Positions 23,776-62,757 of a stretch of 64,000 bases of DNA are shown here, one piece after another. The DNA is from Escherichia coli. Lineage in GTDB: Bacteria; Pseudomonadota; Gammaproteobacteria; Enterobacterales; Enterobacteriaceae. How positions within the stretch are numbered: position 1 is the first letter of the stretch; each line of letters begins with the position of its first letter. Below the pieces are notes generated by a model. It was not told the DNA's origin. It made no database searches and saw nothing but the letters and a program-made list of their open reading frames with translations. The stretch is from the NCBI RefSeq assembly GCF_044324875.1, contig NZ_CP172185.1, one strand, 5' to 3'. Made by a program: the position numbers and the translations under genes.

Positions 23776-23778
23776 CCT

Positions 23779-25455: not shown

Positions 25456-25829
25456 AGGCGGATCTTCCCGCTACTGGCGGTGTGGCGGGCGTCACCGTCG
25501 TGACGCTGATAGCTAAAGCTCAGAATCTGGCGTTCTTCCTGCCAGTTAAGCGTGAGCGTGACGCGGTTGTCCGGCAGCAACGGGGACTGGAATTTGATGT
25601 TCTGAATAGAGTGAAAACGCCAGCCAGGCGCGAGCAGAGTGAGCGCGTAGCTCATCGCCCAGTCGATTTGTGCAACTCCTGGGAGTAACGGCTGCACGGC
25701 AAAATGGCCGCGAAACCAGAACAGATCTGCCCTGAGATGCAAAACAATCTCAAGGTGATTCGCTTGTGCCTGATGGCGCTCGATTTCATGGGGCTTCATG
25801 AAATAACTCCTGTAATTGCGCATAGACAC
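25446..25829 (-). CDS. Hotdog-fold dehydratase (ApeI-like)
   Basis: 127-aa hotdog-like protein overlapping both neighbours. Confidence 0.6.
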   Translation of the reverse strand: MSMRNYRSYFMKPHEIERHQAQANHLEIVLHLRADLFWFRGHFAVQPLLPGVAQIDWAMSYALTLLAPGWRFHSIQNIKFQSPLLPDNRVTLTLNWQEERQILSFSYQRHDGDARHTASSGKIRLCR

Positions 25830-27147
25830 GCTTGTTCATACTGTTTACTGGCATTTCATCAATAACGCGCCAGTAACGCGGAATAGCAACTGGCTCCAGC
25901 GTCGGGCGCAGTAATCGCCGCCAGGTCATTTCCTGGCTATGCCCGCCGCCGTTCTGCCATTGCAGGCGAGCTTCGTCATCCAGCACCAGCAAAACGCCGA
26001 TGCTCTGACGCCCGCCGCGCGTAACGGGAACTGCCGCCGCCTCGCGAATGCCGTCCAGCGCCAGCAGACGTTGTTCTACTTCCTGCAGAGAAATACGTTT
26101 TTCTTCAATCTTAACGATGCGCCCACGACGCCCCATCAGATGGAACTGACCGTCCTGGCTAAACTGCAAGAGATCATCGAGTAACAGGCCGTTATCTTCC
26201 GCTATCAGCGGTGAAAAGAGACGAAATGCTTCACCTTCGGCCTGGAAGTGCATACCTGGAAAGGGCAGCCAGCGGCGTTGCTCTTGTTCGCGGTAACGCC
26301 AGGCAATGACGCCGGTTTCCGTGCTGCCGTAGATTTCATCAGGCCAGACGCGCAGCCAGCTCGCGGTGTGTTTTACGTCCTGCCACGGCAGCTCACCGCC
26401 AGCAGAGAGAAGCACCTGAACGGGCGGCGGAGAAAGCTGGGTATCCAGCCGTTTCAAAAATGCCGGGCTGCTGATGAAGATATAGCGATGCTGGTGACTC
26501 AATGCGGCAAACTGTTCGACATACCAGAGCATGGCGGCGTGCAGCGGTAATCCCAGCGCCATTGGCAGGAAAACGCGAAAAGTCAGGCCGTACAGATGCT
26601 GCGGCAATACGGAACCGACGACACGACATCCGGCAAGACGTGCGCCTAATCGTTCAGCCAGCAGTTCTGCTTCACGGTCCAGCAAATGAACAGGTTTAAT
26701 TACCCGCTTTGGCTGCCCCGTAGAACCGGAGGTAAATAGCTCGATATAAGCGTCTGGCGCTATAGCGGCAAAGGTGAATGATTGTGTCGCGACTTGTGGG
26801 GAACTTGCTACCAACAGCAATGAACCTTGCCAGTTAAGATCGCTGTCGCTAAGTACACCATCGAACAGTTCACGTTGTTCATTAAGCTGGATGACACGGT
26901 TATGCCCCGGAAGCACCGGCGTTTTTCCGGCGTGTAGCGTGGCAAGCAGGGCAACGATAAACAAATAACTGTTCTCAAAGCACAGCGCCCAGCGTTCACC
27001 CGGCTGTTGCTGCAAGCGGCAGATAAGTTGCGCGACATCGTGACGCAAATCGCCCAGTGTCCACGAGCTTTCGTCCAGCCACGCAATGGGCGTGTCATCA
27101 GGGCGTGGCGCAGTCAGCCAGCGTGCAAGCGGTAAGGTCTGCTTCAT
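25786..27147 (-). CDS. AMP-dependent synthetase/ligase, acyl-ACP synthetase-like (ApeH-like, likely aryl starter activation)
   Basis: Adenylate-forming enzyme motifs (TSGSTGQPK AMP-binding motif); start set at the ATG at 27147, immediately after the upstream gene stop, rather than the ORF-track start at 27186. Confidence 0.75.
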   Translation of the reverse strand: MKQTLPLARWLTAPRPDDTPIAWLDESSWTLGDLRHDVAQLICRLQQQPGERWALCFENSYLFIVALLATLHAGKTPVLPGHNRVIQLNEQRELFDGVLSDSDLNWQGSLLLVASSPQVATQSFTFAAIAPDAYIELFTSGSTGQPKRVIKPVHLLDREAELLAERLGARLAGCRVVGSVLPQHLYGLTFRVFLPMALGLPLHAAMLWYVEQFAALSHQHRYIFISSPAFLKRLDTQLSPPPVQVLLSAGGELPWQDVKHTASWLRVWPDEIYGSTETGVIAWRYREQEQRRWLPFPGMHFQAEGEAFRLFSPLIAEDNGLLLDDLLQFSQDGQFHLMGRRGRIVKIEEKRISLQEVEQRLLALDGIREAAAVPVTRGGRQSIGVLLVLDDEARLQWQNGGGHSQEMTWRRLLRPTLEPVAIPRYWRVIDEMPVNSMNKRVYAQLQELFHEAP

Positions 27148-27725
27148 GAGCGATCTCTTTTTATCACCTGACGGCGCACCAGCCATTCACCTGCCATTAA
27201 CGTTCCCATCAAAAAATAAGCAATCATGCCGTTCCAGGCGGTCCATAACGACATATCGCCATAAAGCGCGGTAAAGAGGGCAATTCCGCCGTTAATGATG
27301 AAAAAGCCGCACCAGATTTGCGTGACACGGCGGGTATAGCGCACGCCCTTTTCCGGGAGGTCTGGCTCCTGCAAACGTGCCAGCCGCTCAACTATCGGCA
27401 TTGTCGACCACAGCGAACCGCCAAAAACCGCCAGCATGATCGCGTTAACCACTACCGGGTAAAACAGCAGTAGCTGGTGCGTTTTCAACAGAAAGCTGGC
27501 GACACACAATGCGATGCCCACGACAGCGACGATTTGTGTGACGGCTTGTAGCGGCCCCGCCCGGCGACGGGTCTGGCGCAGGCGCAACAATAGCAGCAAC
27601 GCTATTAGCGGCAACAACCAGTGCAGGCCGTTATGCGCCAGGCCAAACCAAATCACAAACGGCCAGGCGAGCAGCAATAATCCAGTCAGCAGCTTAATCA
27701 TCGGTAGCGAGCGAATGCCCGACAT
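27144..27725 (-). CDS. Integral membrane protein of the cluster (ApeG-like)
   Basis: 193-aa hydrophobic protein with several predicted transmembrane helices. Confidence 0.6.
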   Translation of the reverse strand: MSGIRSLPMIKLLTGLLLLAWPFVIWFGLAHNGLHWLLPLIALLLLLRLRQTRRRAGPLQAVTQIVAVVGIALCVASFLLKTHQLLLFYPVVVNAIMLAVFGGSLWSTMPIVERLARLQEPDLPEKGVRYTRRVTQIWCGFFIINGGIALFTALYGDMSLWTAWNGMIAYFLMGTLMAGEWLVRRQVIKRDRS

Positions 27726-27729
27726 CAGA

Positions 27730-27981
27730 TCAGGCTTCTTGTAGCAGGCGTTCTACAGCCTCTACGACATCCTGAACTGTGCGCACTGCTTTAAACTCTT
27801 CCGGCTTGATTTTCTTACCGGTTTTCTTTTGCAGGTGCACAATCATGTCAACGGCGTCGATGCTGTCCAGTTCCAGATCTTCGTACAGGCGCGCTTCAGG
27901 TTTGATGTCCTGCGGATCGATTTCAAACAGCTTAACCAGCAGGGCTGAGACTTCCTGATAGACGGTTTGTTGTTCTGTCAT
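27730..27981 (-). CDS. Acyl carrier protein (second of a tandem pair; ApeF-like)
   Basis: 83-aa protein with the phosphopantetheine attachment motif LELDSIDAVD. Confidence 0.85.
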   Translation of the reverse strand: MTEQQTVYQEVSALLVKLFEIDPQDIKPEARLYEDLELDSIDAVDMIVHLQKKTGKKIKPEEFKAVRTVQDVVEAVERLLQEA

Positions 27982-27992
27982 GATGGCTTTCC

Positions 27993-28250
27993 TCAGGCGC
28001 GTTGCGCAGCAATGAAAGAGGCCAGAGTGGCGACGGAGAAAAAGTGCTGACGCATCTCTTCGCTTTCGGCTGAGAGCACCACGCCGTACTCATTTTTTAC
28101 TGCCAGTCCCAGTTCCAGGGCATCGATGGAATCCAGTCCTAAACCGTCGCCGAACAGCGGCGCATCGGTCTCGATATCATCAGGAGTCAACTCGTCCAGA
28201 TTGAGGGTGCTGATGATGAGGTTTTTAATTTCCAGATAAAGCGCTTGCAT
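27993..28250 (-). CDS. Acyl carrier protein (first of a tandem pair; ApeE-like)
   Basis: 85-aa protein with motif LGLDSIDALEL around the conserved Ser. Confidence 0.85.
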   Translation of the reverse strand: MQALYLEIKNLIISTLNLDELTPDDIETDAPLFGDGLGLDSIDALELGLAVKNEYGVVLSAESEEMRQHFFSVATLASFIAAQRA

Positions 28251-29064
28251 TATTTATTCCTGAGAGAGGTAAACAACCTTGTTGTAATAGAAGCAAAAGA
28301 TGCCGGTTTAACTGCCTTGCTGCCAGCGCCGGTTCTTGTGAAGTTGCATCGTAAAATTTATTGATTTCAACCCGACCATGGACTTCAACCGTAAAAAACG
28401 GCCGGTCAGGTGGAACGTCATACCATTTACTTTGTTTATCCAGCAGATGCTCGCTACAGCCGATCGTCACGATGCGTAAATCGCTGGCACAGCGCACGGC
28501 AATATTCGCCGCCCCGCGCTGCAGCGTCATTTTTTCACCGGGCTTCGTTCGCGTGCCTTCGGGGAAAATCAGGATAGTGTCACCCTGTGCCAGTCGCTGT
28601 TGGCAGCGGGGTAACAGGGTTTCAGCTTCGCTGTTGATTAAATAATCTACCGCCCGCACGACGCCGCCAAGAAAAGGATTTTTTAACAGCGCGCTTTTCA
28701 CCAGGCAGTCAGTTTCTGGCATGACTGACGCCAGCAGCACGTAATCGATCAGCGTGGGATGATTGGCTACGACGAGGCAACCGCGTTCCTGACGTAAAAT
28801 TTCAGCGCCATCAATACGATAATCCAGCACGCCAAGCCCTTTCGCGACAGTTAAAAACAGGCGAAAACTGGCGGCAATGCTGCGACGCGCCAAACGACGG
28901 CGGCGGGAAGTATCCCACACCAAAACTAACAATATGTTAAACCACACGACAGAAAGCAGCAGGCCGCCGAGACCAAACAGGGCAAAACATAACCCGGTCA
29001 TGACCAGTCGCCAGGTCCACTCCAGACGTGACATCAGCTTACTCATCTGCGGCTCCAGCGCCAT
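28225..29064 (-). CDS. Lysophospholipid acyltransferase family protein (PlsC/LPLAT-like; ApeD-like)
   Basis: N-terminal transmembrane segment and acyltransferase motifs (NHPTLIDY, FPEGTR). Confidence 0.75.
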   Translation of the reverse strand: MALEPQMSKLMSRLEWTWRLVMTGLCFALFGLGGLLLSVVWFNILLVLVWDTSRRRRLARRSIAASFRLFLTVAKGLGVLDYRIDGAEILRQERGCLVVANHPTLIDYVLLASVMPETDCLVKSALLKNPFLGGVVRAVDYLINSEAETLLPRCQQRLAQGDTILIFPEGTRTKPGEKMTLQRGAANIAVRCASDLRIVTIGCSEHLLDKQSKWYDVPPDRPFFTVEVHGRVEINKFYDATSQEPALAARQLNRHLLLLLQQGCLPLSGINNASALSGN

Positions 29065-29789
29065 TGCACGCGCTCGCCAGGCAGTGAAAATGCGTCTGCA
29101 TTTTGTAAATAATGCTGTAAAAACAACATGCTTTGCGGCAGTGATGTTTCATTGCCCGCAATGGCTGACTGCGTTTCACATTGCCAGTCATCGCCAGATT
29201 CAATCACCAGCGCGACGGCGTACGGCCAGGTCGGCATTTCTGATGGCAGTTGTGGGTGATAAAACTCGGGCAGAAAACCGTCAAAATCGACCATCAACAC
29301 GCGCTGGTATCCCGCTTGTAACAGGCTAAGCACTTCACACAAACCTTGCTGGAAAGTGTCGCGACCAGCAGAAAGCGATGACGAAACTATCGGCTGTTTG
29401 GCCGCAATGGTCAGGTTACCCACGGAAGAGTTGTGTACGGAGAGCGCGAAGTCGGTCGGAGAAAGCGCCTGTTCGGTTGCCAGTGCATGAACAATGCGGT
29501 AATTGCGCTCCAGTTCGCCATGACGACTGGTATACAAAACGGCGTCTGGCTGATGGCGGCGTAGCATTGCCAGACCGCATTCAACAGCCAGTTTGCTGCC
29601 TGAACTAAGGCGGCGGGCGGTCATCATTGGCAGTTCACTTAATTTTGCCAACGGCGCGGCAGGGTCAATCGCCCACGGCTGGCGCGACCATGCTTGCCAT
29701 TGCTGCGCTTCGCTAAGTCCAGGCGCCAGTGCCTGCCAGTCGGTAATATTTAATGTAAATTTCATCAACGCGCGCCCGCGGTAAACCAA
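29043..29789 (-). CDS. Ketosynthase-related protein lacking an obvious active-site Cys (chain-length-factor-like; ApeC-like)
   Basis: 248-aa protein with thiolase-fold similarity, shorter than a canonical KS; pairs with the upstream KS in this cluster type. Confidence 0.6.
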   Translation of the reverse strand: MVYRGRALMKFTLNITDWQALAPGLSEAQQWQAWSRQPWAIDPAAPLAKLSELPMMTARRLSSGSKLAVECGLAMLRRHQPDAVLYTSRHGELERNYRIVHALATEQALSPTDFALSVHNSSVGNLTIAAKQPIVSSSLSAGRDTFQQGLCEVLSLLQAGYQRVLMVDFDGFLPEFYHPQLPSEMPTWPYAVALVIESGDDWQCETQSAIAGNETSLPQSMLFLQHYLQNADAFSLPGERVQWRWSRR

Positions 29790-29805
29790 AATTATTAAGT
29801 GACGA

Positions 29806-30873
29806 TTATTTCTTTTGGCATATCAAAAGTGTATGCCCAACGCCTAAATTATCGTGGCGCTCTGCTACCTGGAATCCTGCTTTATTCAGATAGTCGTAAA
29901 ATTTCTCTGCACTATAGAAACGGCTGTTACCGTTTGCCATGCAGGTAAAATAAAGTGAGGACGCGTTCAGGCTAAATGATGCTGCTTCAAACCGCTGCGC
30001 ATCCCAGAACAACTCCATGATGCAAACTTTTGCGCCAGGCTTCATTACGCTGGCGATTTTGCTGAGTATGCTAATTATTTGTTCGGGTGAAAAACAGTCT
30101 AAAAATTGGCTCATCCACCAGATATCAGCCTCGCCCGGTAATGGGGCATCGCTTAGCATATCCACCGCATGGAAATCTATGCGATCAGAAAAACCTGCAT
30201 TCGCGATATTTTCTTTCGCTAGTACGATTTGTTGTGGCAGATCTAATAACGTCACGGCGATGTTTTCATTGTATTTGCAGCAACGCAAAGCCCACTTACC
30301 CGTATTGCCGCCTACATCGTACAATGTTGTGGGGTTGTTGGCGAATACATAAGGCAGTGCGGCGTTAAATGCGCCATCTGAATAGTAATGATCAAACGCA
30401 AACCAGCTTTCACGAGCGGCGTCTGGTAATTGTGAAAGTGCCGGATATATCGTCGACCAGTCGCCAAATACTTTTAACCCGGACGGTTTTCCTTCATTGA
30501 GTGAATCGGCGAGGAAGAAGAGCCCCTGGTAACAGACATCCTGGGTGAAATCCATATTCACGCGAGTCATAGTGTCATGCAGGAGGTAATGACCGATTTT
30601 CGCCAGGTAATACATTCCCTCTTTACAGGTAATAATTCGCCCGCTTAAGCCCATATCTAACAGAACGCTGGCCGCATATTCGTTGATATGGCTATGTTCG
30701 GTGATATCAGCCAGCGTTGCGCCATGTTTGCCTTGCCGATCCAGATATGAAAGTACACCCGCATTACGTAGGCAGAGTGCTGTTTGAAAAAGCATAGGGG
30801 CAAAGGCAATGCGTTGAGCTTCGGTAATCGCATCCAGTGCGCTAAGAGAATCCTGTTCGTACATGTTGGGCAC
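29806..30873 (-). CDS. SAM-dependent O-methyltransferase (ApeB-like)
   Basis: 355 aa with a class I methyltransferase Rossmann motif (LYDVGGNTG). The ORF-track start is a GTG at 30873; the ATG at 30864 is an alternative. Confidence 0.75.
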   Translation of the reverse strand: MPNMYEQDSLSALDAITEAQRIAFAPMLFQTALCLRNAGVLSYLDRQGKHGATLADITEHSHINEYAASVLLDMGLSGRIITCKEGMYYLAKIGHYLLHDTMTRVNMDFTQDVCYQGLFFLADSLNEGKPSGLKVFGDWSTIYPALSQLPDAARESWFAFDHYYSDGAFNAALPYVFANNPTTLYDVGGNTGKWALRCCKYNENIAVTLLDLPQQIVLAKENIANAGFSDRIDFHAVDMLSDAPLPGEADIWWMSQFLDCFSPEQIISILSKIASVMKPGAKVCIMELFWDAQRFEAASFSLNASSLYFTCMANGNSRFYSAEKFYDYLNKAGFQVAERHDNLGVGHTLLICQKK

Positions 30874-30932
30874 AACCTGTTAAGAGGGAATTAAATTATT
30901 ATCGGACCGCAGCGGCCCGACTTTAGGAAGAA

Positions 30933-31322
30933 TTATAAATCTGCGCCCGCTGACAAATTCAGTTGAATATCTTTGTCGAGATTGCGGACCCAGCGATTGT
31001 AGTTTTTATGAATTTGTCCGCCTGACGCTTGTAGGTTCTGGCTATTTTCATAATTGATATCGTAGCTGGATGCCGTGTAGTTAATGCGAATTTCGGCTGA
31101 ATGATCGCGTGACTGTTGACGTGCTTTAATTACGCCTTGTCCGGCTTCGGACATAATCCATTTGCGTTCAACGCCAGCTTTCAGAATCGCTTTTTTCACT
31201 TGTTCCTGGGTATGACCAGCGCTGACGGTTGAGTGAACCTGATCAATTGGCGCAGTACGCGCGCAACCCGCTAAAGCACCCACAACAGCAATAGCCGCAA
31301 ACCATTTCATGTAATGTCTCAT
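30933..31322 (-). CDS. Small lipoprotein, first gene of the cluster (ApeA-position)
   Basis: 129-aa ORF with signal peptide and lipobox LAGC; AT-rich promoter-like region upstream. Confidence 0.6.
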   Translation of the reverse strand: MRHYMKWFAAIAVVGALAGCARTAPIDQVHSTVSAGHTQEQVKKAILKAGVERKWIMSEAGQGVIKARQQSRDHSAEIRINYTASSYDINYENSQNLQASGGQIHKNYNRWVRNLDKDIQLNLSAGADL

Positions 31323-31682: not shown

Positions 31683-32068
31683 GCCTGCTCAGGAGGTGCT
31701 ATTAACCCGGTAATCGACTTTTCGGTCTGCCCGGTCCCAGTAAAATCGCCAGTTTGCTACCGCCTTTGGTGGTTTCCATCCAGATTTTACACACGCTGGT
31801 TAATGGTACCGAAAGTAGCATCCCTACCGGGCCGAGCAGCCATCCCCAAATTAACAATGAAAGAAATACCACCATGGTGGACATCCCCAGGCGATGGCCC
31901 ATCATCCGTGGTTCTAAAATATTGCCGATGACCATATGGACCACTAAAAACAATGCGCCGACCAGAATACATTCGTAAACGCCATTAAACAGCAGCACCT
32001 GAATCATTGGCGGGGTGATGCTGCCAACTTACTGATTTAGTGTATGATGGTGTTTTTGAGGTGCTCCA

Positions 32069-32344
32069 GTGGCTTCTGTTTCTATCAGCTGTCCCTCCTG
32101 TTCAGCTACTGACGGGGTGGTGCGTAACGGCAAAAGCACCGCCGGACATCAGCGCTATCTCTGCTCTCACTGCCGTAAAACATGGCAACTGCAGTTCACT
32201 TACACCGCTTCTCAACCCGGTACGCACCAGAAAATCATTGATATGGCCATGAATGGCGTTGGATGCCGGGCAACTGCCCGCATTATGGGCGTTGGCCTCA
32301 ACACGATTTTACGTCACTTAAAAAACTCAGGCCGCAGTCGGTAA
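32069..32344 (+). CDS. insA: IS1 InsA protein
   Basis: 91-aa ORF starting [32 protein letters not shown] (zinc-finger/HTH region of InsA). Confidence 0.95.
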
Positions 32345-32766
32345 CCTCGCGCATACAGCCGGGCAGTGACGTCATCGTCTGCGCGGAAATGGACGAACAG
32401 TGGGGCTATGTCGGGGCTAAATCGCGCCAGCGCTGGCTGTTTTACGCGTATGACAGGCTCCGGAAGACGGTTGTTGCGCACGTATTCGGTGAACGCACTA
32501 TGGCGACGCTGGGGCGTCTTATGAGCCTGCTGTCACCCTTTGACGTGGTGATATGGATGACGGATGGCTGGCCACTGTATGAATCCCGCCTGAAGGGAAA
32601 GCTGCACGTAATCAGCAAGCGATATACGCAGCGAATTGAGCGGCATAACCTGAATCTGAGGCAGCACCTGGCACGGCTGGGACGGAAGTCGCTGTCGTTC
32701 TCAAAATCGGTGGAGCTGCATGACAAAGTCATCGGGCATTATCTGAACATAAAACACTATCAATAA
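32263..32766 (+). CDS. insB: IS1 InsB reading frame (expressed as the InsAB' transposase by -1 frameshifting)
   Basis: 167-aa frame overlapping insA in the -1 frame, ending IKHYQ; standard IS1 organisation. Confidence 0.9.
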
Positions 32767-33647
32767 GTTGGAGTCATTACCCATTGGCGGTACGGCGGAA
32801 ATTACCGCGCCGATATTGGGCACGTAGTTGAGCAAAAACGCCAGTACTGCCCACATCAGCGCAAACTGTACGCCCATTAGCGCCAGCCCCAGCCAGACGA
32901 TTACGCCTGTCCATAAACTTAGCAGCGTCTTTAACGCCAGATAATGCGAAACACCTTTTAAGGCGCGGTGTAGTCCGGCGATGTGAATCTGTGGATTATT
33001 CAACGCAAAACGCATTTTGTAAGGGACGTGGCGCACTTCAAACAGCATGAAAACTACGGTCATCACCAGCAAAAGCACGCTCGCCATTGCCCCGGAAAGC
33101 CCGGTCATTAGCGCCGTGGTGAAGGTAACCACTTTTTCCGAGTCCATCCGCTGCAGCATTCGCTCCGGTGACATATGCAAATTAAGAAAAGGCAACATCT
33201 CCTGCAATTTAAAAAGTTTGCGCGTTAGCTCCTTATTAAACTTCGGCAGCATAGAGATAAATTCGTTAAACGATGCCGCCAGTACGCCAACCAGCGCGGT
33301 TAGTGCGATCAGCATCACCACCACCACAATCGTAATGGCAACGGGGCGTTGTACTCCCCGACGAATAAACCAGGTGACGAGCGGGTTGAGGACGATGGCA
33401 AAAAACAGCGCCAGTAACAGCTGCACAATGATATCTGCCGCTGCGTGAATTCCCGCGAGGATCACTACCAGCGAGGCCAGCTTGAGCAGAATGTGCATGC
33501 CCGTTTTATCGGGTTGAGGGGTTTCCATTGGGGCTTCCTTGTGACTTTTTGTATTAAGTGTAGCGGGAGTCACGCCAGCAATATTCTGATTCTTACTGCT
33601 GATTTTCACGTCAGCACGTGGTAAAAATGAAACACTGTTGTAAAAAT

Positions 33648-34865
33648 GTGGTGATCCTCATGCCCGAACCCGCGCTAAACGGATTGCGCCTGAATTTGCG
33701 CATTGTCTCCATTGTCATGTTTAACTTCGCCAGCTACCTCACCATCGGGTTGCCGCTCGCTGTATTACCGGGCTATGTCCATGATGTGATGGGCTTTAGC
33801 GCTTTCTGGGCAGGATTGGTTATCAGCCTGCAATATTTCGCCACCTTGCTGAGCCGCCCTCATGCCGGACGTTACGCCGATTTGCTGGGACCCAAAAAGA
33901 TTGTCGTCTTCGGTTTATGTGGCTGCTTTTTGAGCGGTCTGGGATATCTGACGGCAGGATTAACCGCCAGTCTGCCCGTCATCAGCCTGTTATTACTTTG
34001 CCTGGGACGCGTCATCCTTGGGATTGGGCAAAGTTTTGCCGGAACGGGATCGACCCTGTGGGGCGTTGGCGTGGTTGGCTCGCTGCATATCGGGCGGGTG
34101 ATTTCGTGGAACGGCATTGTCACTTACGGGGCGATGGCGATGGGTGCGCCGTTAGGTGTCGTGTTTTATCACTGGGGCGGCTTGCAGGCGTTAGCGTTAA
34201 TCATTATGGGCGTGGCGCTGGTGGCCATTTTGTTGGCGATCCCGCGTCCGACGGTAAAAGCCAGTAAAGGCAAACCGCTGCCGTTTCGCGCGGTGCTTGG
34301 GCGCGTCTGGCTGTACGGGATGGCGCTGGCACTGGCTTCCACCGGATTTGGCGTTATCGCCACCTTTATCACGCTGTTTTATGACGCTAAAGGTTGGGAC
34401 GGTGCGGCTTTCGCGCTGACGCTGTTTAGCTGTGCGTTTGTCGGTACGCGTTTGTTATTCCCTAATGGCATTAACCGTATCGGCGGCTTAAACGTGGCGA
34501 TGATTTGCTTTAGCGTTGAGATAATCGGCCTGCTACTGGTTGGCGTGGCGACTATGCCGTGGATGGCGAAAATCGGCGTCTTACTGGCGGGGGCAGGGTT
34601 TTCGCTGGTGTTCCCGGCATTGGGCGTAGTGGCGGTAAAAGCGGTTCCGCAGCAAAATCAGGGGGCGGCTCTGGCAACCTACACCGTATTTATGGATTTA
34701 TCGCTTGGCGTGACCGGACCACTGGCTGGGCTGGTGATGAGTTGGGCGGGCGTACCGGTGATTTATCTGGCGGCGGCGGGACTGGTCGCAATCGCGTTAT
34801 TACTGACGTGGCGATTAAAAAAACGGCCTCCGGAACACGTCCCTGAGGCCGCCTCATCATCTTAA
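33648..34865 (+). CDS. yhhS: MFS-family transporter
   Basis: 12-TM MFS protein. Start is uncertain: in-frame GTG at 33648 (405 aa, the length I recall for the K-12 protein), ATG at 33660, or the ORF-track start at 33618. Confidence 0.75.
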   Translation: MVILMPEPALNGLRLNLRIVSIVMFNFASYLTIGLPLAVLPGYVHDVMGFSAFWAGLVISLQYFATLLSRPHAGRYADLLGPKKIVVFGLCGCFLSGLGYLTAGLTASLPVISLLLLCLGRVILGIGQSFAGTGSTLWGVGVVGSLHIGRVISWNGIVTYGAMAMGAPLGVVFYHWGGLQALALIIMGVALVAILLAIPRPTVKASKGKPLPFRAVLGRVWLYGMALALASTGFGVIATFITLFYDAKGWDGAAFALTLFSCAFVGTRLLFPNGINRIGGLNVAMICFSVEIIGLLLVGVATMPWMAKIGVLLAGAGFSLVFPALGVVAVKAVPQQNQGAALATYTVFMDLSLGVTGPLAGLVMSWAGVPVIYLAAAGLVAIALLLTWRLKKRPPEHVPEAASSS

Positions 34866-34868
34866 AAC

Positions 34869-35426
34869 TTACTGAATAACCAGCGTATTAATGATGTTTT
34901 CTGCGGTGGTCTGCGCTTTTTGCTGATCGTCAGCGGGCAGCGTAATTTGCATGGTCAGCAGTTGATTACCCACGTTACCCAGAATAACGGAAGAGTACGC
35001 CGTCTGGCCTTTCGCGGAGATAATGCTGTCTAACTGCTGCATTTTGTGACCTTTCAGCTCAATGGCTTTATTGGTTACCACTTGCAGCTGCGGATCGCGG
35101 CTACGTTGCTGATCTTCCAGACGCTTCGCCAGCACCGCCAGATCTTCTTTCGGGTCATCGCCCATGATGACGATGACTGCTTTCTGCCCGGTGGCATCGG
35201 ACCAGACATGCATGTTATTGGCCTGCGTTCCCAGCTTACCGCTCTGGTCGGTCATATCCGCTGGCAGCGAGAAACTTAACTTGCCATCAAGCAGGTTGAC
35301 GGGATTCCCGGTAGCGTTACTTTCCGCGACCGAACCCTGCGCCGTAGCGTTAGTGTCTTTATCATCACAGGCCGCAAGCCCCATAACCAGCAGGCCAATT
35401 CCGACATATTTAACCAGATTGCGCAT
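34869..35426 (-). CDS. dcrB: Periplasmic lipoprotein DcrB
   Basis: 185-aa product starting [22 protein letters not shown] (lipobox LAAC). Confidence 0.85.
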
Positions 35427-35498
35427 TGACTTCTTCCTTTCGATAAACGGCCATAACGGCTCATTCATCCATCTTATCACAACTCTGATAACGAACCT

Positions 35499-36164
35499 TT
35501 AACTCGCCTGCAAAGCGTTGATTTCAGATTTATCTGCCAGTCTTTTCAACAGCATATTGAGTAATACGCCATACATTGGCAGGAAGAAAACGATACTGAT
35601 TAACACTTTGAAACAGTAATCGACCAGCGCGATTTCCATCCAGTGTTCAGCCATAAAGGCATCGGGGCTACGCCAGAAGGCAATGAAGAAGAAGGCCAGT
35701 GTGTCGCTGACGTTACCGAACAGTGTGGACGCTGTCGGTGCCAGCCACCAGCGGCGACTCTGACGCAGGCGGTTAAAAACGTGCACGTCGAGGATCTGGC
35801 CCAGCGCGTAGGCCATGAAACTGGCGGTGGCGATACGGGCGACAAACAGGTTGAAGTGAGCGAGTGCGCCGAATCCCTGCCAGGAGCCCATATAGAACAG
35901 CGACGAGATGACGTAGGAGATCAGCAACGCCGGGATCATCACCGCAAAGATGATACGACGGGCCAGCGGTGCGCCAAAAATACGCACAGTCAGGTCGGTA
36001 GCAAGGAAAATAAACGGAAAGCTAAACGCGCCCCATGTGGTATGGAAACCAAAAATGGAGACGGGAAGCTGAACCAGATAGTTACTGGAGGTGATCACCA
36101 GAAGATGAAATAACGATAACCAGAACAACGCCTTATAGCGTTGCGTTTGCGAGAAAACGTTCAT
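35499..36164 (-). CDS. yhhQ: Queuosine-precursor transporter family membrane protein
   Basis: 221-aa polytopic membrane protein at the conserved position between dcrB and tusA. Confidence 0.85.
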   Translation of the reverse strand: MNVFSQTQRYKALFWLSLFHLLVITSSNYLVQLPVSIFGFHTTWGAFSFPFIFLATDLTVRIFGAPLARRIIFAVMIPALLISYVISSLFYMGSWQGFGALAHFNLFVARIATASFMAYALGQILDVHVFNRLRQSRRWWLAPTASTLFGNVSDTLAFFFIAFWRSPDAFMAEHWMEIALVDYCFKVLISIVFFLPMYGVLLNMLLKRLADKSEINALQAS

Positions 36165-36385
36165 ATTGTACCTTTTTGATTAACCATTGGGGTGAGGGAA
36201 CCCAATACGTACGACACGCTATTTTACCTTGATTAAATAACGTTCTTACCCTTTTTTCGAGCCGCCGCATGATACTGCTTTACGTTGACAATGCAATGGT
36301 TAATTTTCACGCAATCGTTAACCTGGTTTGCTTACGGACTCACAGGGCGTAAACTAGCGCCGTTTTTTTAAGTGATGAGAAGAAA

Positions 36386-36631
36386 ATGACCGATCTCTTT
36401 TCCAGCCCTGACCACACACTCGACGCGCTTGGCCTGCGCTGCCCGGAACCGGTGATGATGGTGCGCAAAACCGTGCGCAATATGCAGCCTGGCGAAACGT
36501 TGCTGATTATCGCCGACGATCCGGCCACTACCCGCGATATTCCTGGGTTTTGTACCTTTATGGAACACGAACTGGTTGCTAAAGAGACGGATGGATTGCC
36601 TTATCGTTATTTGATTCGCAAAGGCGGTTGA
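36386..36631 (+). CDS. tusA: Sulfur carrier protein TusA
   Basis: 81-aa protein with the conserved CPxP motif ([11 protein letters not shown]). Confidence 0.95.
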
Positions 36632-36732
36632 TGGGGAAAGATTGGCTTCGATGCCGCCTTTTCCCCTCACCCTAACCCTCTCCCCAGAGGAGCGAGGGGA
36701 CCGATCGCGCTCAATGTTGCGATCGGTTTGCC

Positions 36733-38931
36733 TTATCTCCTGCGCAACAGCCTTAACGCATTCGCCGTCACCAGCACCGTCGCACCGGTATCTGCCAGCA
36801 CTGCCAGCCACAGTCCGGTCATCCCTAACAGCGTCGTGACGAGGAAAACGCCTTTCAGCCCCAGCGCAATAGTGATGTTCTGGCGGATATTGGCGTGAGT
36901 GGCGCGTGCCAGTTCAATCATTTGCACCAGGCCGCGCAGGTGGTTATGGGTTAATGCTGCATCGGCGGTTTCCAGCGCCACGTCTGTGCCACTGCCCATT
37001 GCAATCCCGATGGCGGCGGCTTTCATCGCTGGCGCGTCGTTAATACCGTCACCGACCATCGCCAGCGGCGCATGTTGATTCAGTTCGGTTACCGCTTTGA
37101 CTTTATCTTCCGGCAATAGGCCCGCTTTAAACTCCAGCCCCAGTTCCCCGGCAATTGCCGCCGCTGCGCGTGGATTATCGCCGGTGAGGATCACCCCTTT
37201 GACGCCCAGCGCGTTCAGTTCACTGATAGCAGTTGCAGCATCGGCGCGCAGGGTATCCTGCAACGCAATGACACCAAGCACGTCATCATTACGTACTACC
37301 AGCACTACCGTTTGCCCGGCGCTTTCCAGTTCATTAATCAAACCAGCAAATGCAACAGCGGGATGTTTCCCTGCAGCGCATATCAACACGCGCTCACCGT
37401 TAACCTGCGCTTCAATGCCAGACCCAACCAGCGCCCGCTGTGATTGGGCGGCGGGAATGGCGAGTTCAGCAACCTGTGCTTCTCGCACGATGGCTTGCGC
37501 CAGTGGATGCGTCGCGCCTTGCTCGACCGCCGCTGCCAGTGTCAGCAGTTCAGATTCACTAATACCCGTTGCCGGATGAATCGCGGTAACGCGCGGTTTA
37601 CCGACGGTCAGCGTACCGGTTTTATCAAACGCCACCTGGGTAACACGACCTAGTTGTTCCAGCGCCGCACCGCCTTTAATCAACGCCCCACGACGCGCTG
37701 CTGCTGCCAGCCCGGAGGTTATCGCCGCAGGCGTTGAGATAACTAACGCACACGGGCAACCAATCAGCAGCAGCGTCAGCCCTTTATAAATCCACTCTTG
37801 CCAGCTGGCGGCAAACAGCAGCGGCGGCACCAGCGTTACCAGCAGGGCGACGGCCATAATCGCGGGCGTGTAGATACGGCTGAAACGGTCGATAAACCGC
37901 TCAATGGGGGCGCGACGCTCTTCGGCTTCTTCGATCAGTTTCAGAATCCGGTCAATGGCGCTGGCACCCGGTTCTGACAGCACTTCCAGCGTTACCAGAC
38001 GGTCTACGCTGGTGGCTCCAGCAGGGACTTTATTGCCCGTTGCGCGCTCCACCGGAATAGATTCGCCGGTCAGGGCGCTTTCATCAAAACTGGCAAACGG
38101 TGAGAGCAGTTTACCGTCGGCAGGCAAACGTCCACCTGCGGCGACTTCAATCACATCGCCAGGGCGTAGGCTGTTAATCGCCACCTCTTCCCGCTCACCG
38201 TTACGCAGGCGCGTGGCGGTTTCTGGTTTCAGCGCCATTAACGCGCTAACGCCCTGACGCGCGCGGCTGGCGGCCCAGCCTTCCAGTCGTTCACCAATCA
38301 AAAACAGCAGCAACACCATCGCAGCTTCAGCCGTTGCGCCAATAAACAGCGCACCAATAGCGGCTACGCTCATTAACGTTTCAATGGCGAAGTAGCTGCC
38401 GGATTTGATCAGCCGTAATGCCTGACGAGCAATCGGGTACAGCCCAACCAGCGTGGTCGCGATAAACGCCAGTTGCCCGAACGGATGATTAAACTGCTCC
38501 AGACCCCAGCTGATTGCCATCATCACGATTAGCGTAATCAGCGGCAAATTCTCTTTCAGGCGTGATGTTTGCGGTTCGTCGGCGGCCTGTTCATCGCGCA
38601 GGGAATAGCCCGCTTTTTGCACCGCAGATTCAACCTGGGCACGGATGTCATTGTCGGCATCGACCACCAGTTTTTCGGTGGCGAACAACACCTGCACCTG
38701 ATTCACGCCTGCAAGCTGGCGCACGGCATTTTCTACCTTGCGCGCACAGGCGGCGCAGTCCATGCCGCTGACTTTCCAGCTATAGCGGGTGCCGGAGACG
38801 TTTTCAGAGAGAGTTGGCGTGCTGGAACATGCGCCGTCGCAGCAACAGTCGTTGGCGTTCTGTACCGTGGTTAGCGGTTTGAACGCAGCAAATTGAGGGG
38901 CTTTCTTGCCGTGATTGTCAGGAGTCGACAT
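36733..38931 (-). CDS. zntA: Zn/Cd/Pb-exporting P1B-type ATPase ZntA
   Basis: 732 aa with N-terminal metal-binding GMDCAAC motif, CPC transmembrane motif, DKTGT phosphorylation site and GDGINDAP hinge motif. Confidence 0.95.
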   Translation of the reverse strand: MSTPDNHGKKAPQFAAFKPLTTVQNANDCCCDGACSSTPTLSENVSGTRYSWKVSGMDCAACARKVENAVRQLAGVNQVQVLFATEKLVVDADNDIRAQVESAVQKAGYSLRDEQAADEPQTSRLKENLPLITLIVMMAISWGLEQFNHPFGQLAFIATTLVGLYPIARQALRLIKSGSYFAIETLMSVAAIGALFIGATAEAAMVLLLFLIGERLEGWAASRARQGVSALMALKPETATRLRNGEREEVAINSLRPGDVIEVAAGGRLPADGKLLSPFASFDESALTGESIPVERATGNKVPAGATSVDRLVTLEVLSEPGASAIDRILKLIEEAEERRAPIERFIDRFSRIYTPAIMAVALLVTLVPPLLFAASWQEWIYKGLTLLLIGCPCALVISTPAAITSGLAAAARRGALIKGGAALEQLGRVTQVAFDKTGTLTVGKPRVTAIHPATGISESELLTLAAAVEQGATHPLAQAIVREAQVAELAIPAAQSQRALVGSGIEAQVNGERVLICAAGKHPAVAFAGLINELESAGQTVVLVVRNDDVLGVIALQDTLRADAATAISELNALGVKGVILTGDNPRAAAAIAGELGLEFKAGLLPEDKVKAVTELNQHAPLAMVGDGINDAPAMKAAAIGIAMGSGTDVALETADAALTHNHLRGLVQMIELARATHANIRQNITIALGLKGVFLVTTLLGMTGLWLAVLADTGATVLVTANALRLLRRR

Positions 38932-38966
38932 GGCATCCTCCGGTTAAGTTTTTTCTCATTAACCGA

Positions 38967-38998
38967 AGGATACACTCTGGAGTCGACTCCAGAGTCAA
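38967..38998 (-). promoter_or_regulatory. zntA promoter with ZntR operator dyad (TTGACT -35, CTCTGGAGTCGACTCCAGAG dyad in an extended spacer, -10 element)
   Basis: Reverse complement reads ACTTGACTCTGGAGTCGACTCCAGAGTGTATCCTTC, matching the known MerR-type PzntA architecture; -10 lies 36 bp upstream of the zntA start. Confidence 0.8.
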
Positions 38999-39004
38999 GT
39001 TTTA

Positions 39005-39631
39005 TCAGAGATACAGCGAGCGGACGATGAGGAAATGACCGGCAAAGTAGCAGGCCGCAGCAATCGCGTTGTCCGCACGGAAGCGTCGGCGATAGTGACT
39101 ACCCAGCCAGACAAAGTTACTGATAAATAGCAACGAAGCGCCGACAAACGCAGAGAGCGCCGGAGCGGTCGGACGGAAGAACCACAGTTCACCTGCCAGC
39201 CACACCATCACCAGCGTCATGCCGATAAACGTGCAGATAGGCCAACGATACTCTTCCAGACGCGTCCAGATAATCGCCAGTAACAGCGCGCCCAGAACCA
39301 GCAACACCAGTGGCAGAGGCCAGAAGAAAGAGAGCGTCATCTGACTGGCGAAATAGATGGTGTACAGCAGGTGCGAGAGGAAAAACGCGCCGATGGCGTA
39401 CATCAGACGTTGACGTGGCAACAGGGTTAGCGCATCGCCCAGCAGTGAGGCGCACAGCCCCGCCAGCACCAGATAGCTAATGGCGTCGAACATTGGCGCT
39501 TGCCAGGCCAGTAACAGCAGGAGAAGAAGGGTTAACGGTTTAAACACCCAGCGTTGCCAGGTTGGCCCACGATACGATGCATCCACAGATAGCCATGCGG
39601 AAAGACAGACAGCGATAAACGACCAAAGCAT
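39005..39631 (-). CDS. yhhN: YhhN-family integral membrane protein
   Basis: 208-aa polytopic membrane protein at the conserved position. Confidence 0.85.
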
Positions 39632-39771
39632 CTTAGTTCCTTGAATTCGTTATTTTTTCGTAAGCGGAATGCCTACGGTCTTGCTTCCAGTTTAGTGGCG
39701 AGGGTGGACGGATGACAACACCATAACTGGCAGGGTATGCTTATTTCCGCATTTTCCGATGAGGGATAAAG

Positions 39772-40131
39772 ATGAGCAAACCACCTCTTTTCTTTATTGT
39801 TATCATTGGCTTAATCATCGTCGCCGCATCGTTTCGTTTTATGCAACAGCGACGGGAAAAAGCTGATAATGATATGGCACCACTCCAGCAAAAGCTGGTG
39901 GTGGTGAGCAACAAGCGGGAAAAACCGATTAACGATCGCCGTTCGCGCCAGCAGGAAGTGACTCCGGCAGGCACCAGTATGCGCTATGAGGCAAGCTTCA
40001 AACCGCAAAGCGGAGGAATGGAGCAGACGTTTCGCCTCGACGCCCAGCAATACCACGCCCTGACAGTGGGTGATAAAGGTACGCTGAGCTATAAAGGAAC
40101 GCGCTTTGTCAGCTTTCTAGGCGAACAATAA
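39772..40131 (+). CDS. yhhM: Small membrane-anchored protein YhhM
   Basis: 119-aa ORF with an N-terminal transmembrane helix; conserved position and sequence. Confidence 0.8.
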   Translation: MSKPPLFFIVIIGLIIVAASFRFMQQRREKADNDMAPLQQKLVVVSNKREKPINDRRSRQQEVTPAGTSMRYEASFKPQSGGMEQTFRLDAQQYHALTVGDKGTLSYKGTRFVSFLGEQ

Positions 40132-40133
40132 GG

Positions 40134-40406
40134 TTATTTTTTAACTTTAAATTTCTTCTGCCAGACCAGTAGTTCAAACACGCCGAAAAGGAAAATCCGC
40201 ACCTTTTCGGCGGTGGTCATCTGCGGGCCATCATTCGGTAAAGTGGATTTCAATAGCGCCAGCTGCATACCATGCATCAGCACGGTAAAAATCAGCGCCA
40301 CGTTAACAAAAATATTCAGCGGGCGTGGGAAGGGATGCACCAGGTTGAGGATTAAAAATCCCCAAACGCAGAGCATTAACAAACGACCAATATTAATCAG
40401 CATCAC
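40134..40406 (-). CDS. yhhL: Small inner-membrane protein YhhL
   Basis: 90-aa two-TM ORF; stop overlaps the rsmD start region. Confidence 0.75.
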   Translation of the reverse strand: MMLINIGRLLMLCVWGFLILNLVHPFPRPLNIFVNVALIFTVLMHGMQLALLKSTLPNDGPQMTTAEKVRIFLFGVFELLVWQKKFKVKK

Positions 40407-40989: not shown

Positions 40990-41138
40990 GATAAATTGCT
41001 CAATCCGCCAGATAACACATACTTGCAGGCGGTGATGTGAATTAAGTTAAGTGATAGACTATTTCATCATTTTTTTAGCTGCTATGTACATAGCGTTAAC
41101 GCTGTGCCGTGAAGCAACAGCGAGGAGTGTAGTCGCAA

Positions 41139-42635: not shown

Positions 42636-42637
42636 CA

Positions 42638-44357: not shown

Positions 44358-44601
44358 TAAAAGCGTGTTATACTCTTTCCCTGCAATGGGTTCCGTAGCA
44401 GGGAAAGAGACCCCGTTGTCTCTTCCCGGTATTTCATCTCTATGTCACATTTTGTGCGTAATTTATTCACAGCGTTGCATTGAACTTGTGGATAAAATCA
44501 CTGTCTGATAAAACAGTGAATGATAACCTCGTTGCTCTTAAGCTCTGGCACAGTTGTTGCTACCACTGAAGCGCCAGAAGATATCGATTGAGAGGATTTG
44601 A

Positions 44602-58573: not shown

Positions 58574-60316
58574 ATGATAAAACCGACGTTTTTACGCCGG
58601 GTGGCCATTGCTGCTCTGCTCTCAGGAAGTTGTTTTAGCGCCGCCGCCGCGCCTCCTCCGCCACCTGTTTCTTATGGCGTGGAGGACGATGTCTTTCATC
58701 CGGTACGCGCGAAACAGGGGATGGTGGCGTCTGTAGATGCTACTGCCACTCAGGTGGGGGTGGATATCCTCAAGGAGGGTGGGAATGCCGTTGATGCCGC
58801 CGTGGCGGTGGGCTACGCGCTGGCGGTAACGCATCCGCAGGCAGGGAATCTGGGCGGTGGTGGTTTTATGCTGATCCGCTCGAAAAATGGCAATACCACC
58901 GCTATCGATTTCCGCGAAATGGCACCCGCCAAAGCGACCCGCGATATGTTCCTCGATGACCAGGGCAACCCGGACAGCAAAAAATCACTCACTTCGCATC
59001 TGGCCTCCGGTACGCCAGGTACGGTCGCAGGTTTCTCGCTGGCGCTGGAGAAGTACGGCACCATGCCGTTAAATAAAGTGGTGCAGCCGGCGTTTAAACT
59101 GGCACGCGATGGTTTTATCGTTAATGACGCGCTGGCTGACGATCTCAAAACCTACGGTAGCGAAGTGTTGCCGAATCACGAAAACAGCAAGGCTATCTTC
59201 TGGAAAGAGGGCGCGCCGCTGAAAAAGGGCGACAAGCTGGTGCAGGCGAACCTGGCAAAGAGCCTGGAGATGATTGCCGAAAACGGCCCGGACGAATTCT
59301 ACAAAGGCACGATAGCGGAACAGATTGCCCAGGAGATGCAGAAAAACGGTGGCTTGATCACTAAAGAAGATTTAGCGGCGTATAAAGCGGTCGAACGTAC
59401 ACCGATTAGCGGCGATTATCGCGGGTATCAGGTTTACTCCATGCCACCGCCATCTTCCGGCGGGATCCATATCGTACAAATCCTCAATATTCTGGAAAAC
59501 TTCGATATGAAGAAATACGGCTTTGGCAGCGCCGACGCGATGCAAATCATGGCAGAAGCTGAGAAATATGCCTACGCCGACCGCTCGGAATATCTTGGCG
59601 ACCCGGATTTTGTCAAAGTTCCGTGGCAGGCGCTGACCAATAAAGCCTATGCCAAATCTATTGCCGATCAAATCGATATCAATAAAGCGAAGCCATCCAG
59701 CGAAATTCGCCCCGGCAAGCTTGCGCCTTATGAGAGTAATCAAACTACCCATTACTCAGTGGTGGATAAAGACGGCAACGCGGTAGCGGTGACCTATACG
59801 CTGAACACCACCTTCGGGACGGGCATTGTCGCGGGCGAGAGCGGTATTCTGCTTAATAACCAGATGGATGATTTCTCCGCCAAACCTGGCGTACCGAACG
59901 TTTACGGGCTGGTGGGTGGTGACGCCAACGCGGTCGGGCCGAATAAACGCCCGCTGTCGTCGATGTCCCCAACCATTGTGGTGAAAGACGGTAAAACCTG
60001 GTTAGTGACTGGTAGCCCAGGCGGTAGCCGGATCATCACTACCGTGCTGCAAATGGTGGTGAACAGCATCGATTATGGTATGAATGTCGCCGAAGCGACC
60101 AATGCACCGCGTTTCCACCATCAGTGGTTGCCGGACGAACTGCGCGTCGAGAAAGGATTTAGCCCGGATACGCTCAAGCTGCTGGAAGAAAAAGGTCAGA
60201 AAGTAGCGCTGAAAGAGGCGATGGGCAGCACACAAAGCATTATGGTTGGGCCGGACGGCGAGTTGTACGGCGCATCCGATCCGCGCTCGGTGGATGATTT
60301 AACGGCGGGGTATTAA
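58574..60316 (+). CDS. ggt: Gamma-glutamyltranspeptidase
   Basis: 580 aa with signal peptide and the conserved Thr-containing autoprocessing region (NQTTHYSVVD). Confidence 0.95.
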   Translation: MIKPTFLRRVAIAALLSGSCFSAAAAPPPPPVSYGVEDDVFHPVRAKQGMVASVDATATQVGVDILKEGGNAVDAAVAVGYALAVTHPQAGNLGGGGFMLIRSKNGNTTAIDFREMAPAKATRDMFLDDQGNPDSKKSLTSHLASGTPGTVAGFSLALEKYGTMPLNKVVQPAFKLARDGFIVNDALADDLKTYGSEVLPNHENSKAIFWKEGAPLKKGDKLVQANLAKSLEMIAENGPDEFYKGTIAEQIAQEMQKNGGLITKEDLAAYKAVERTPISGDYRGYQVYSMPPPSSGGIHIVQILNILENFDMKKYGFGSADAMQIMAEAEKYAYADRSEYLGDPDFVKVPWQALTNKAYAKSIADQIDINKAKPSSEIRPGKLAPYESNQTTHYSVVDKDGNAVAVTYTLNTTFGTGIVAGESGILLNNQMDDFSAKPGVPNVYGLVGGDANAVGPNKRPLSSMSPTIVVKDGKTWLVTGSPGGSRIITTVLQMVVNSIDYGMNVAEATNAPRFHHQWLPDELRVEKGFSPDTLKLLEEKGQKVALKEAMGSTQSIMVGPDGELYGASDPRSVDDLTAGY

Positions 60317-61087: not shown

Positions 61088-61582
61088 TTATGAACAACTG
61101 TCCATGATTTCGTTTAAGAATGAAGAGAAATCACTAAACGAACTGAATATATTTTCGGTGCCAATATTATCTCTAATTTCAAAAAAGTTATTTTTAATGT
61201 CATAAGTAAATATTGAAATGCTATCATCCCCGATCACTAACCGTTCTTGTAGATCAGGGTTTATGAAATCATCATTATTTCTATAAAATTCATTTACGGT
61301 AAAAAGGTTTTTAACTGAAGGTTCTGGAATCGAGAGGCTAAATAATCGTAATCCATTAACTTCGAATCCATCCATTGCTCTTAAAAAAGTAAGATAATCA
61401 GGTTGATTCTTAAAAAGAATACTAACTTCATTACATAACTTCTCCAGGCAATTAGTTGAATTAGAATTAAATTCTATTTGGATTATACTTTCAATAAATG
61501 ATTCCTTGAGCGGTGCTTCAAATGGATAGTCTAAATCATTCATCATTTTTTTTAATTTATTTATTTGGGTTTTAGTCATCAT
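61088..61582 (-). CDS. Candidate immunity protein for the upstream Hcp-toxin (YrhA-like, apparently intact here)
   Basis: 164-aa ORF in a very AT-rich segment; its start overlaps the toxin stop by 4 bp (ATGA), the usual effector-immunity arrangement. Confidence 0.6.
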   Translation of the reverse strand: MMTKTQINKLKKMMNDLDYPFEAPLKESFIESIIQIEFNSNSTNCLEKLCNEVSILFKNQPDYLTFLRAMDGFEVNGLRLFSLSIPEPSVKNLFTVNEFYRNNDDFINPDLQERLVIGDDSISIFTYDIKNNFFEIRDNIGTENIFSSFSDFSSFLNEIMDSCS

Positions 61583-62757
61583 TTTGTGGGTTCCATAATA
61601 TTTTTCATGGGAGGATAAATTGAGCCAGATGGAATGGCCCAGGGAGTGATTTTGCTTTCACCTACTAATATTCCCTTAGCTATTCGTGATTGCATGTTAG
61701 TAAAAACTTTATGATATGGTTCGTTTTCGATTAATACTAAATTTTCGAAATCATTAGTACCACCATCATCTAGAGATAGTTTATGGTGAACATTATAATT
61801 TAGAGGAACATTGCCCTTTCTCATTCTTAAAAGGTCTTCGGCGTTGAATCTTCCAGATGCTTCGGAGGTTTTTGCAAGTTTGATAAGAAAATTTTTTCTT
61901 ACAGTTTTATTAAACTCCTTTCGTAAGTTAGCTAAGTCTTTTGAAGGTCTCTTAATGTATATTATTTCTATTATGTCTATACCATCAAGAAGTTTTTGTT
62001 GACCTCTAAGTTTGCCTAAATAACTATTTATTTCTGTATATGTATCAACATTAGAACGCTTTGTTAAAAGAATAGATGCTGTTGCTATCGCTATGCCCGC
62101 TGTTTTTTCATTTAGTATTTGATCATAGCCTTTTATTGCATCTCCACCCAGTTTTTCCGCAGTATCTCTGAATCCTTCAATGTTCCCATTGTATACGCCA
62201 CCAGCAGCAAGTAGCCTGCCAATAGCTTTGCTGTTTAACGTTTTGAAACGATTATTTGTTTGGTTTTTTGAATTTGGTAAAAACAAACGGTTATAATTTT
62301 CAGGGAGTGCCAAATAGCTGAACTCGGTATTTGCGATAAGATGTTGACAGAGGATAAATTCATAACTAACAGTTATTGTTTCTGTATCCAGTTGATTTTC
62401 AATGATCTGATGATGAATAGCCGATAAAAAAGCGCCTCTTAGTTGTATATAATAATACTTTTCCCATCTACCAAATCTATTGATTCTATAAAAGTCAAAT
62501 TCCATAAATAATTGCTCATTATTGTTAATGGAATTAATAAGTAATGGAGTGCTTTTATCAATTAATTTACAAAATGTCATACCCTGTAACTGTGAACCAA
62601 GTCCCGTATTAGTAATTCTATTTGCGAGTGAGAATGTAAATATTTCATCCTCATGCCCACTCTGCCAGCGATTACCTATAGATTCAGTAGTCCCACAACC
62701 TGCGGAGATGTTTCCTTGTTGTTCTCCCGTTACTGTCAGGTAAACAATATTACTCAT
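61579..62757 (-). CDS. yhhZ: Hcp-domain protein with a C-terminal HNH-like nuclease extension (Hcp-ET-type T6SS effector; YhhZ-like)
   Basis: N-terminal 160 aa resembles Hcp (VYLTVTGEQQGNISAGC ...); C-terminus carries an HNH-like motif (NYNVHHKLSLDDGGTNDFENLVLIENEPYH). Confidence 0.7.
   Translation of the reverse strand: MSNIVYLTVTGEQQGNISAGCGTTESIGNRWQSGHEDEIFTFSLANRITNTGLGSQLQGMTFCKLIDKSTPLLINSINNNEQLFMEFDFYRINRFGRWEKYYYIQLRGAFLSAIHHQIIENQLDTETITVSYEFILCQHLIANTEFSYLALPENYNRLFLPNSKNQTNNRFKTLNSKAIGRLLAAGGVYNGNIEGFRDTAEKLGGDAIKGYDQILNEKTAGIAIATASILLTKRSNVDTYTEINSYLGKLRGQQKLLDGIDIIEIIYIKRPSKDLANLRKEFNKTVRKNFLIKLAKTSEASGRFNAEDLLRMRKGNVPLNYNVHHKLSLDDGGTNDFENLVLIENEPYHKVFTNMQSRIAKGILVGESKITPWAIPSGSIYPPMKNIMEPTK

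Follow-up and report, generated by a model that had tools for sequence, protein, structure and literature searches.

One of the four AI-2E-family paralogues of Escherichia coli, a poorly understood group, is encoded by yhhT. In the 64,000-nucleotide stretch of E. coli DNA analysed here, referred to below as the window, an earlier note had described this gene as split by a complete 768-bp IS1 with intact insA and insB, flanked by a perfect 9-bp duplication, and had called the transposition recent. This raises the questions of whether the element and its target duplication are genuine, what is left of yhhT, how old the insertion is, and whether simple transposition can account for it. The host is a phylogroup-D-like E. 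coli, and the complete genomes closest to the window include strain 042.

The IS1 element, its target site and its relatives

IS1 is characterized by a length of 768 bp, imperfect inverted repeats, overlapping insA and insB genes on the same strand with an A6C motif near the end of insA, a 232-aa InsAB' protein with ZF, HTH and DDE domains, and an 8- or 9-bp target duplication (PMC12428005). All these sequence criteria are found in the element at 32014..32781, which is an IS1. The element was located by reading the window and by script, and its parts are as follows:

32005..32013, left copy of the target-site duplication, CATTGGCGG; the gene strand reads CCGCCAATG, corresponding to yhhT codons P247-P248-M249
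32014..32781, plus strand, complete IS1 of 768 bp, IS1A/IS1E type
32014..32036, plus strand, left terminal inverted repeat (IRL), matching the right one at 18 of 23 positions
32069..32344, plus strand, insA, 91 aa with a GTG start, the repressor / DNA-binding part
32263..32766, plus strand, insB reading frame, 167 codons
32320-32326, plus strand, A6C slippery motif AAAAAAC for the -1 programmed frameshift that gives InsAB'
32759..32781, minus strand, right terminal inverted repeat (IRR)
32782..32790, right copy of the target-site duplication, CATTGGCGG

The direct repeat is exact on both sides of IS1, as had been reported, and 32005..32790 comprises precisely the element plus both repeat copies. 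The repeat is 9 bp and not longer, as the adjoining bases differ (T versus C before, G versus T after). On the plus strand, the 9-mer occurs twice in the whole window, both times flanking IS1, and its reverse complement has one unrelated occurrence, at 7694. The probability that two given 9-mers are identical by chance is 4^-9, or about 4e-6. IS1 itself starts with GGTGATGCTGCCAACTTACTGAT and ends with ...AAGTTGGAGTCATTACC. An IS1-mediated deletion, an inversion and a composite transposon were considered and ruled out, since the window contains no second IS1 copy, both duplications have the same sequence and the flanking DNA is colinear. Within 25 bp on either side of the insertion the target region contains 54% G+C, i.e., it is not AT-rich. 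IS1 is usually said to favour AT-rich targets, and because of this base composition the site in yhhT is no textbook preferred IS1 target. A promoter-like site, CTGCCA-16-TATGAT, is located at 32021-32048, where it partly overlaps IRL, and the insA promoter has been described at a site overlapping IRL (PMC12428005). Around yhhT, a scan for promoter and terminator consensus sequences scored no more sites than in shuffled sequence and was not taken as evidence; the site overlapping IRL was among its hits.

Both reading frames of the element are intact. The InsA protein is identical to that of K-12, and a simulated -1 shift at the A6C motif yielded an open InsAB' frame of 232 aa. The Pfam domains Zn_ribbon_InsA, HTH_Tnp_IS1 and DDE_Tnp_IS1 are each matched along their full profile by InsAB' (PF03811, E = 1.4e-19; PF12759, E = 1.7e-28; PF03400, E = 3.5e-78, profile positions 1-131 of 131). 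The copy still looks transposition-competent.

Compared with IS1E of K-12 MG1655, which is also 768 bp long and has the same ends and gene layout, 765 of the 768 nucleotides are the same. The differences are at positions 262, 444 and 561, and one of them accounts for R130 in InsAB' of the copy described here, where IS1E has S. IS1E shares its sequence with IS1A and is the 'consensus' copy, responsible for most of the transposition in K-12 (PMC12428005). The closest sequence that we found is a plasmid-borne IS1A variant, e.g., on the E. coli plasmid NZ_CP031136.1, with 767 of 768 nucleotides the same, an identical InsAB' and a single synonymous difference (A versus G at 561), whereas the copy studied here is chromosomal. 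IS1 copies of at least 99% identity are present on at least 4,969 plasmids from Escherichia, Klebsiella, Salmonella and others. A plasmid-borne IS1A is a plausible source of the copy in yhhT, and the strain hosts an intact plasmid-type IS1 that is probably able to transpose further.

The K-12 element and the one described here are each a simple insertion, and the small chromosomal genes that they split belong to the same ~30-kb neighbourhood, but the targets differ: yrhA for IS1E and yhhT for the copy in the window. In MG1655, yrhA (b3443) carries a pseudogene annotation, with IS1E interrupting it at 3583428-3584195, and is located between yhhZ and yrhD-yrhB-ggt; yhhT is intact in K-12 and adjoins acpT. 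In the window, ggt is located at 58574..60316, and yrhA is an uninterrupted 164-codon open reading frame at 61088..61582 that matches the intact annotated gene of the closest relative. Thus, the remark in the earlier note that K-12 carries an IS1 in yrhA near ggt, with an apparently intact counterpart here, is borne out in both parts.

A separate observation concerns the gene next to yrhA. An Hcp-domain gene at 61579..62757 on the minus strand overlaps the intact yrhA by 4 nt, and together the pair spans 61088-62757. This gene is annotated as tssD or 'Hcp1 family T6SS effector', and K-12 yhhZ as 'putative endonuclease'. The layout of the pair resembles that of a toxin-immunity pair, and in K-12 it is the downstream partner, yrhA, that is split by IS1E.

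The interrupted yhhT gene

The yhhT gene, on the minus strand and 349 codons long, is broken at codons 247-249 by IS1, giving the following arrangement:

32782..33528, minus strand, 5' fragment of yhhT, codons 1-249, including the right repeat copy
31702..32013, minus strand, 3' fragment of yhhT, codons 247-349 plus the stop codon, including the left repeat copy
32701..33528, minus strand, chimeric open reading frame of 275 aa, YhhT residues 1-249 followed by 26 residues from the right end of IS1

The 3' fragment is cut off from promoter and start codon, and the first in-frame start after the IS-borne stop is M249 (open reading frame 31702..32007). The transposase frames run antisense to yhhT and are directed towards yhhS (33618..34865, plus strand). 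The neighbours of yhhT are those found in K-12, with yhhS divergent, followed by dcrB, yhhQ, tusA and zntA.

When IS1 and one repeat copy were removed in silico, a 349-aa YhhT was restored, in agreement with the proposal that the two fragments are colinear parts of one AI-2E-family transporter gene. The joined product is identical to WP_000449758.1, the protein of strains 042 and BEC1-S17-ESBL-09, and differs from K-12 YhhT in a single residue (A216 here, E in K-12). The match to PF01594 (AI-2E_transport) has an E value of 8.1e-85 and extends over residues 14-328, covering profile positions 2-326 of 327. Judged by sequence and by synteny, the split gene qualifies as the orthologue of K-12 yhhT (b3474), a member of the AI-2E family (PF01594 / TC 2.A.86). 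The only nucleotide differences from yhhT of the relatives are three synonymous third-position changes in the 5' part, and the fragments carry no accumulated damage.

The consequence of the break for the protein was assessed by comparison with TqsA (YdgG), a paralogue for which 46% identity to YhhT has been reported and for which a cryo-EM structure is available (7NB6). Residues 8-339 of both proteins align without gaps (E = 1e-89, using restored YhhT), and the TqsA numbering can therefore be mapped one-to-one onto YhhT. TqsA's C-terminal 'transport' domain is made up of TMH5 (189-218), HP1 (222-256), TMH6 (258-283), HP2 (291-328) and a short C-terminal segment; the hairpins have been called functionally critical, and the C-terminal residues 337/339 add to the contacts between protomers (PMC9475539). 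In this numbering, the IS1 break at 247-249 falls within the second arm of HP1. Lost from there on are the rest of HP1, TMH6, HP2 and the C-terminal helix, so that most of the proposed transport domain is missing. Because the break lies in HP1 and everything after it is lost, the split yhhT is almost certainly a null allele that has lost transporter function. In the same structural study YhhT was also purified and appears pentameric, and transport could not be demonstrated even for TqsA (PMC9475539). No yhhT phenotype was found in the literature searched. A reported induction of yhhT by lithocholic acid was set aside, as it has been retracted by its own authors as a mapping artefact.

Distribution, age and surroundings of the insertion

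In the closest complete genome, NZ_AP022298.1, the target site is empty: the last base of the left flank is 321707, the right flank follows directly at 321708, and the uninterrupted sequence contains a single copy of CATTGGCGG. The same insertion in yhhT was present in none of the 5,426 complete E. coli genomes. The empty site in the relatives, the lack of decay in the fragments and the absence from complete genomes indicate that the insertion took place after the nearest sequenced complete relatives had split off, and in this sense it deserves to be called recent.

IS1 was found elsewhere in yhhT in only two of the 5,426 complete genomes, EC14 (NZ_CP060924.1, with the element at 3721-4488 of the locus examined) and 19AR0656 (NZ_CM132277.1). 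Their element is of the IS1B type and has the same orientation relative to the gene, but it differs at 7 nt, is flanked by an 8-bp duplication, ACATCTCC, instead of one of 9 bp, and is located ~430 bp further towards the 5' end of yhhT, leaving a 3' fragment of 741 nt versus 312 nt in the window. Their background also differs, since it lacks the aryl-polyene-type cluster described below, and yhhT adjoins acpT. We take the insertion in EC14 and 19AR0656 to be an independent event.

With the 275-aa chimera as an exact fingerprint, a single match was obtained among other public assemblies: the draft GCA_958308375.1, of which a contig is 100% identical to positions 32658..36528 of the window and ends 124 bp inside IS1. 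Comparison with other assemblies gives both an empty site, in NZ_AP022298.1, and a repetition of the right junction, in this draft. The 101-aa C-terminal fragment was a less useful fingerprint. It is called in hundreds of assemblies, and its matches were uninformative, as most of the places examined were frameshift-ridden assemblies in which the neighbouring genes are broken too. Among the matches examined, only a contig of GCA_049006665.1 was relevant, with flanks that are 100% identical along 3,308 bp and an end at window position 32009, within the left repeat copy. Given the junctions in these two drafts, the insertion is not necessarily unique to one isolate; it may be common to a small clade, or both drafts may come from the same isolate. 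A further contig, number 18 of the Logan assembly of ERR14085487, has its position 1 at window position 32007, inside the same 9-mer, and its 73 mismatches in 3,306 bp clearly set it apart as another lineage. Its start could be a chance contig end picked up by the exact-protein look-up, or it could mark another IS at the same spot.

The sequence to the right of IS1 has a mosaic character. A tract of ~12.7 kb, at ~33289-46000, comprises the 5' part of yhhT, yhhS, dcrB, yhhQ, tusA, zntA, ftsYEX and rpoH and reaches approximately to livJ. Its divergence from the closest complete genome, BEC1-S17-ESBL-09, amounts to ~2%, compared with ~99.9% identity to this genome in the remainder of the window, and its best match in any complete genome is 99.1% (O158:H23 strain CFIAFB20140388). 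The tract is probably an import by homologous recombination, and its left edge can be placed within 500 bp of IS1 but not more finely. The identity to relatives, 99.9% for the left flank versus ~98.8% for the right, had led us to suspect that IS1 sits on the recombination breakpoint. This idea was abandoned, as in the SNP map the first marker showing divergence is found 500 bp to the right of IS1, and there is no evidence for IS-mediated recombination. A smaller irregularity is found in nikA (window 14001-15000), where 14 mismatches to BEC1-S17-ESBL-09 are clustered within 1 kb, inside an otherwise almost identical 32-kb stretch; this looks like a short recombination patch. The gap between tusA and zntA (36623-36737) is 115 bp in the window versus 569 bp in BEC1-S17-ESBL-09 and 042. 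The longer version carries a 309-nt hypothetical gene (WP_000385056.1), and in K-12 no gene is annotated there.

On the other side, a ~15-kb cluster on the minus strand (16294-31310) lies between acpT and yhhT, which adjoin each other in K-12. According to the annotation of the near-identical relative, it contains genes for ketoacyl synthases, a chain-length factor, two ACPs, an ApeP-family dehydratase, a glycosyltransferase, an MMPL transporter, LolA-like and DUF3261 proteins, and a methyltransferase, and it is an aryl-polyene-type lipid/pigment cluster. Window positions 8000-32013 are covered for at least 80% in only 566 of the 5,426 complete genomes. Another module, at 4475-10074 on the minus strand between yhhJ and nikR, would serve sugar utilisation, with a class II aldolase, an HPr-like protein, an FGGY kinase, a galactitol-type PTS (IIC/IIB/IIA) and a GntR regulator in the annotation of a relative. 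At this place K-12 presumably has the RhsB element. The sole Rfam match above the gathering score in the window is the small RNA RyhB (63632-63696, plus strand, 83.1 bits), located between yhhY and yhhX as in K-12.

Origin of the insertion and its consequences

The explanation that best fits these data, and that we consider very probable, is simple transposition of an IS1A/IS1E-type IS1 into chromosomal yhhT, resulting in a lineage-restricted knockout. InsAB' of IS1 is made through a -1 frameshift at the A6C motif (PMC12428005). Following established IS1 biology, a rare frameshift of this kind would have supplied the InsAB' DDE transposase, which would bind both terminal inverted repeats and link the ends of the element to target strands cut with a 9-bp stagger. 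Gap repair would then have duplicated the 9 bp of CATTGGCGG, leaving a 5' fragment predicted to encode YhhT 1-249 plus the 26 IS-derived residues and a 3' fragment that would be promoterless.

An alternative, which we regard as unlikely, is that a donor already harbouring the insertion passed on the IS1-bearing allele by homologous recombination, along with the divergent tract next to it. The left boundary of the tract is just 500 bp from IS1, and as SNPs are lacking from ~28.9 kb to 33,289, a crossover on the left side of the element is conceivable. However, the first marker of the tract is located to the right of IS1, and none of the complete genomes has the insertion, not even those that match the tract best. 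Such an import would moreover still imply an ordinary IS1 transposition, merely in another host.

Quite improbable, in our view, is the idea that the insertion was selected and is not neutral, either because loss of YhhT is adaptive or because IS1 alters the expression of neighbours, i.e., the aryl-polyene-type cluster downstream on the minus strand, or yhhS by plus-strand read-out from the right end of IS1. It is known that IS1 can switch neighbouring genes on or off when it inserts. Here the transposase frames face yhhS, and yhhT has been hit independently in two other complete genomes. IS1 has been described as both activating and inactivating genes, and its promoter as extremely weak and repressed by InsA (PMC12428005). 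This also means that no effect on yhhS is expected. Furthermore, two or three events among thousands of genomes, each with ~10 IS1 copies, is the number to be expected if a non-essential gene of 1 kb is hit neutrally, and the literature searched offers no yhhT phenotype. Effects on the cluster can be judged from the sequence downstream of the gene. The next minus-strand genes past yhhT are a gene for a 129-aa lipoprotein (30933..31322) and the aryl-polyene-type biosynthetic cluster, and just after the yhhT stop codon there is a 9-bp stem-loop followed by a T-rich run, and then a 379-bp AT-rich spacer with a promoter-like site before the next gene. Because of this stem-loop and spacer, co-transcription with the cluster, and hence polarity on the lipoprotein gene and the cluster, would be unlikely. 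A broader version, according to which selection favours loss of yhhT in some host-associated lineages of E. coli and the gene is a recurrent target, or IS1 rewires the aryl-polyene-type cluster or yhhS, draws on the two independent IS1 hits (one in complete genomes, one in the window) and on the unexplained contig break in the same 9-mer of a third, unrelated lineage; we consider it highly improbable.

Finally, an assembly artefact, in which an IS1 from elsewhere was misplaced in yhhT through a collapsed or misjoined repeat, could be imagined because IS1 is multicopy, with 10 matching places as the median per genome in E. coli, and because short-read assemblies are interrupted by it, but the exact 9-bp duplication, which a misjoin would not yield between flanks that are colinear and contiguous in relatives, together with the right junction and 124 bp of IS1 reproduced at 100% identity in a separate draft and the contig of a second draft that ends at the left junction, makes misassembly very unlikely, to the point of being negligible.

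Simple transposition into yhhT thus remains our preferred explanation, and for this event we infer both the mechanism outlined above and the lack of strong polar effects. The resulting yhhT allele is rare, but the type of event is entirely ordinary for IS1, which is the archetype of small insertion sequences in enterobacteria and best known for simple insertions with a 9-bp duplication that knock out non-essential genes, and it involves no new element, mechanism or system. The insertion matters little beyond strain bookkeeping; within that frame, what appears to be a clean natural null allele of yhhT could be used as a lineage marker, e.g., through a junction PCR, or as a natural knockout for studies of YhhT.
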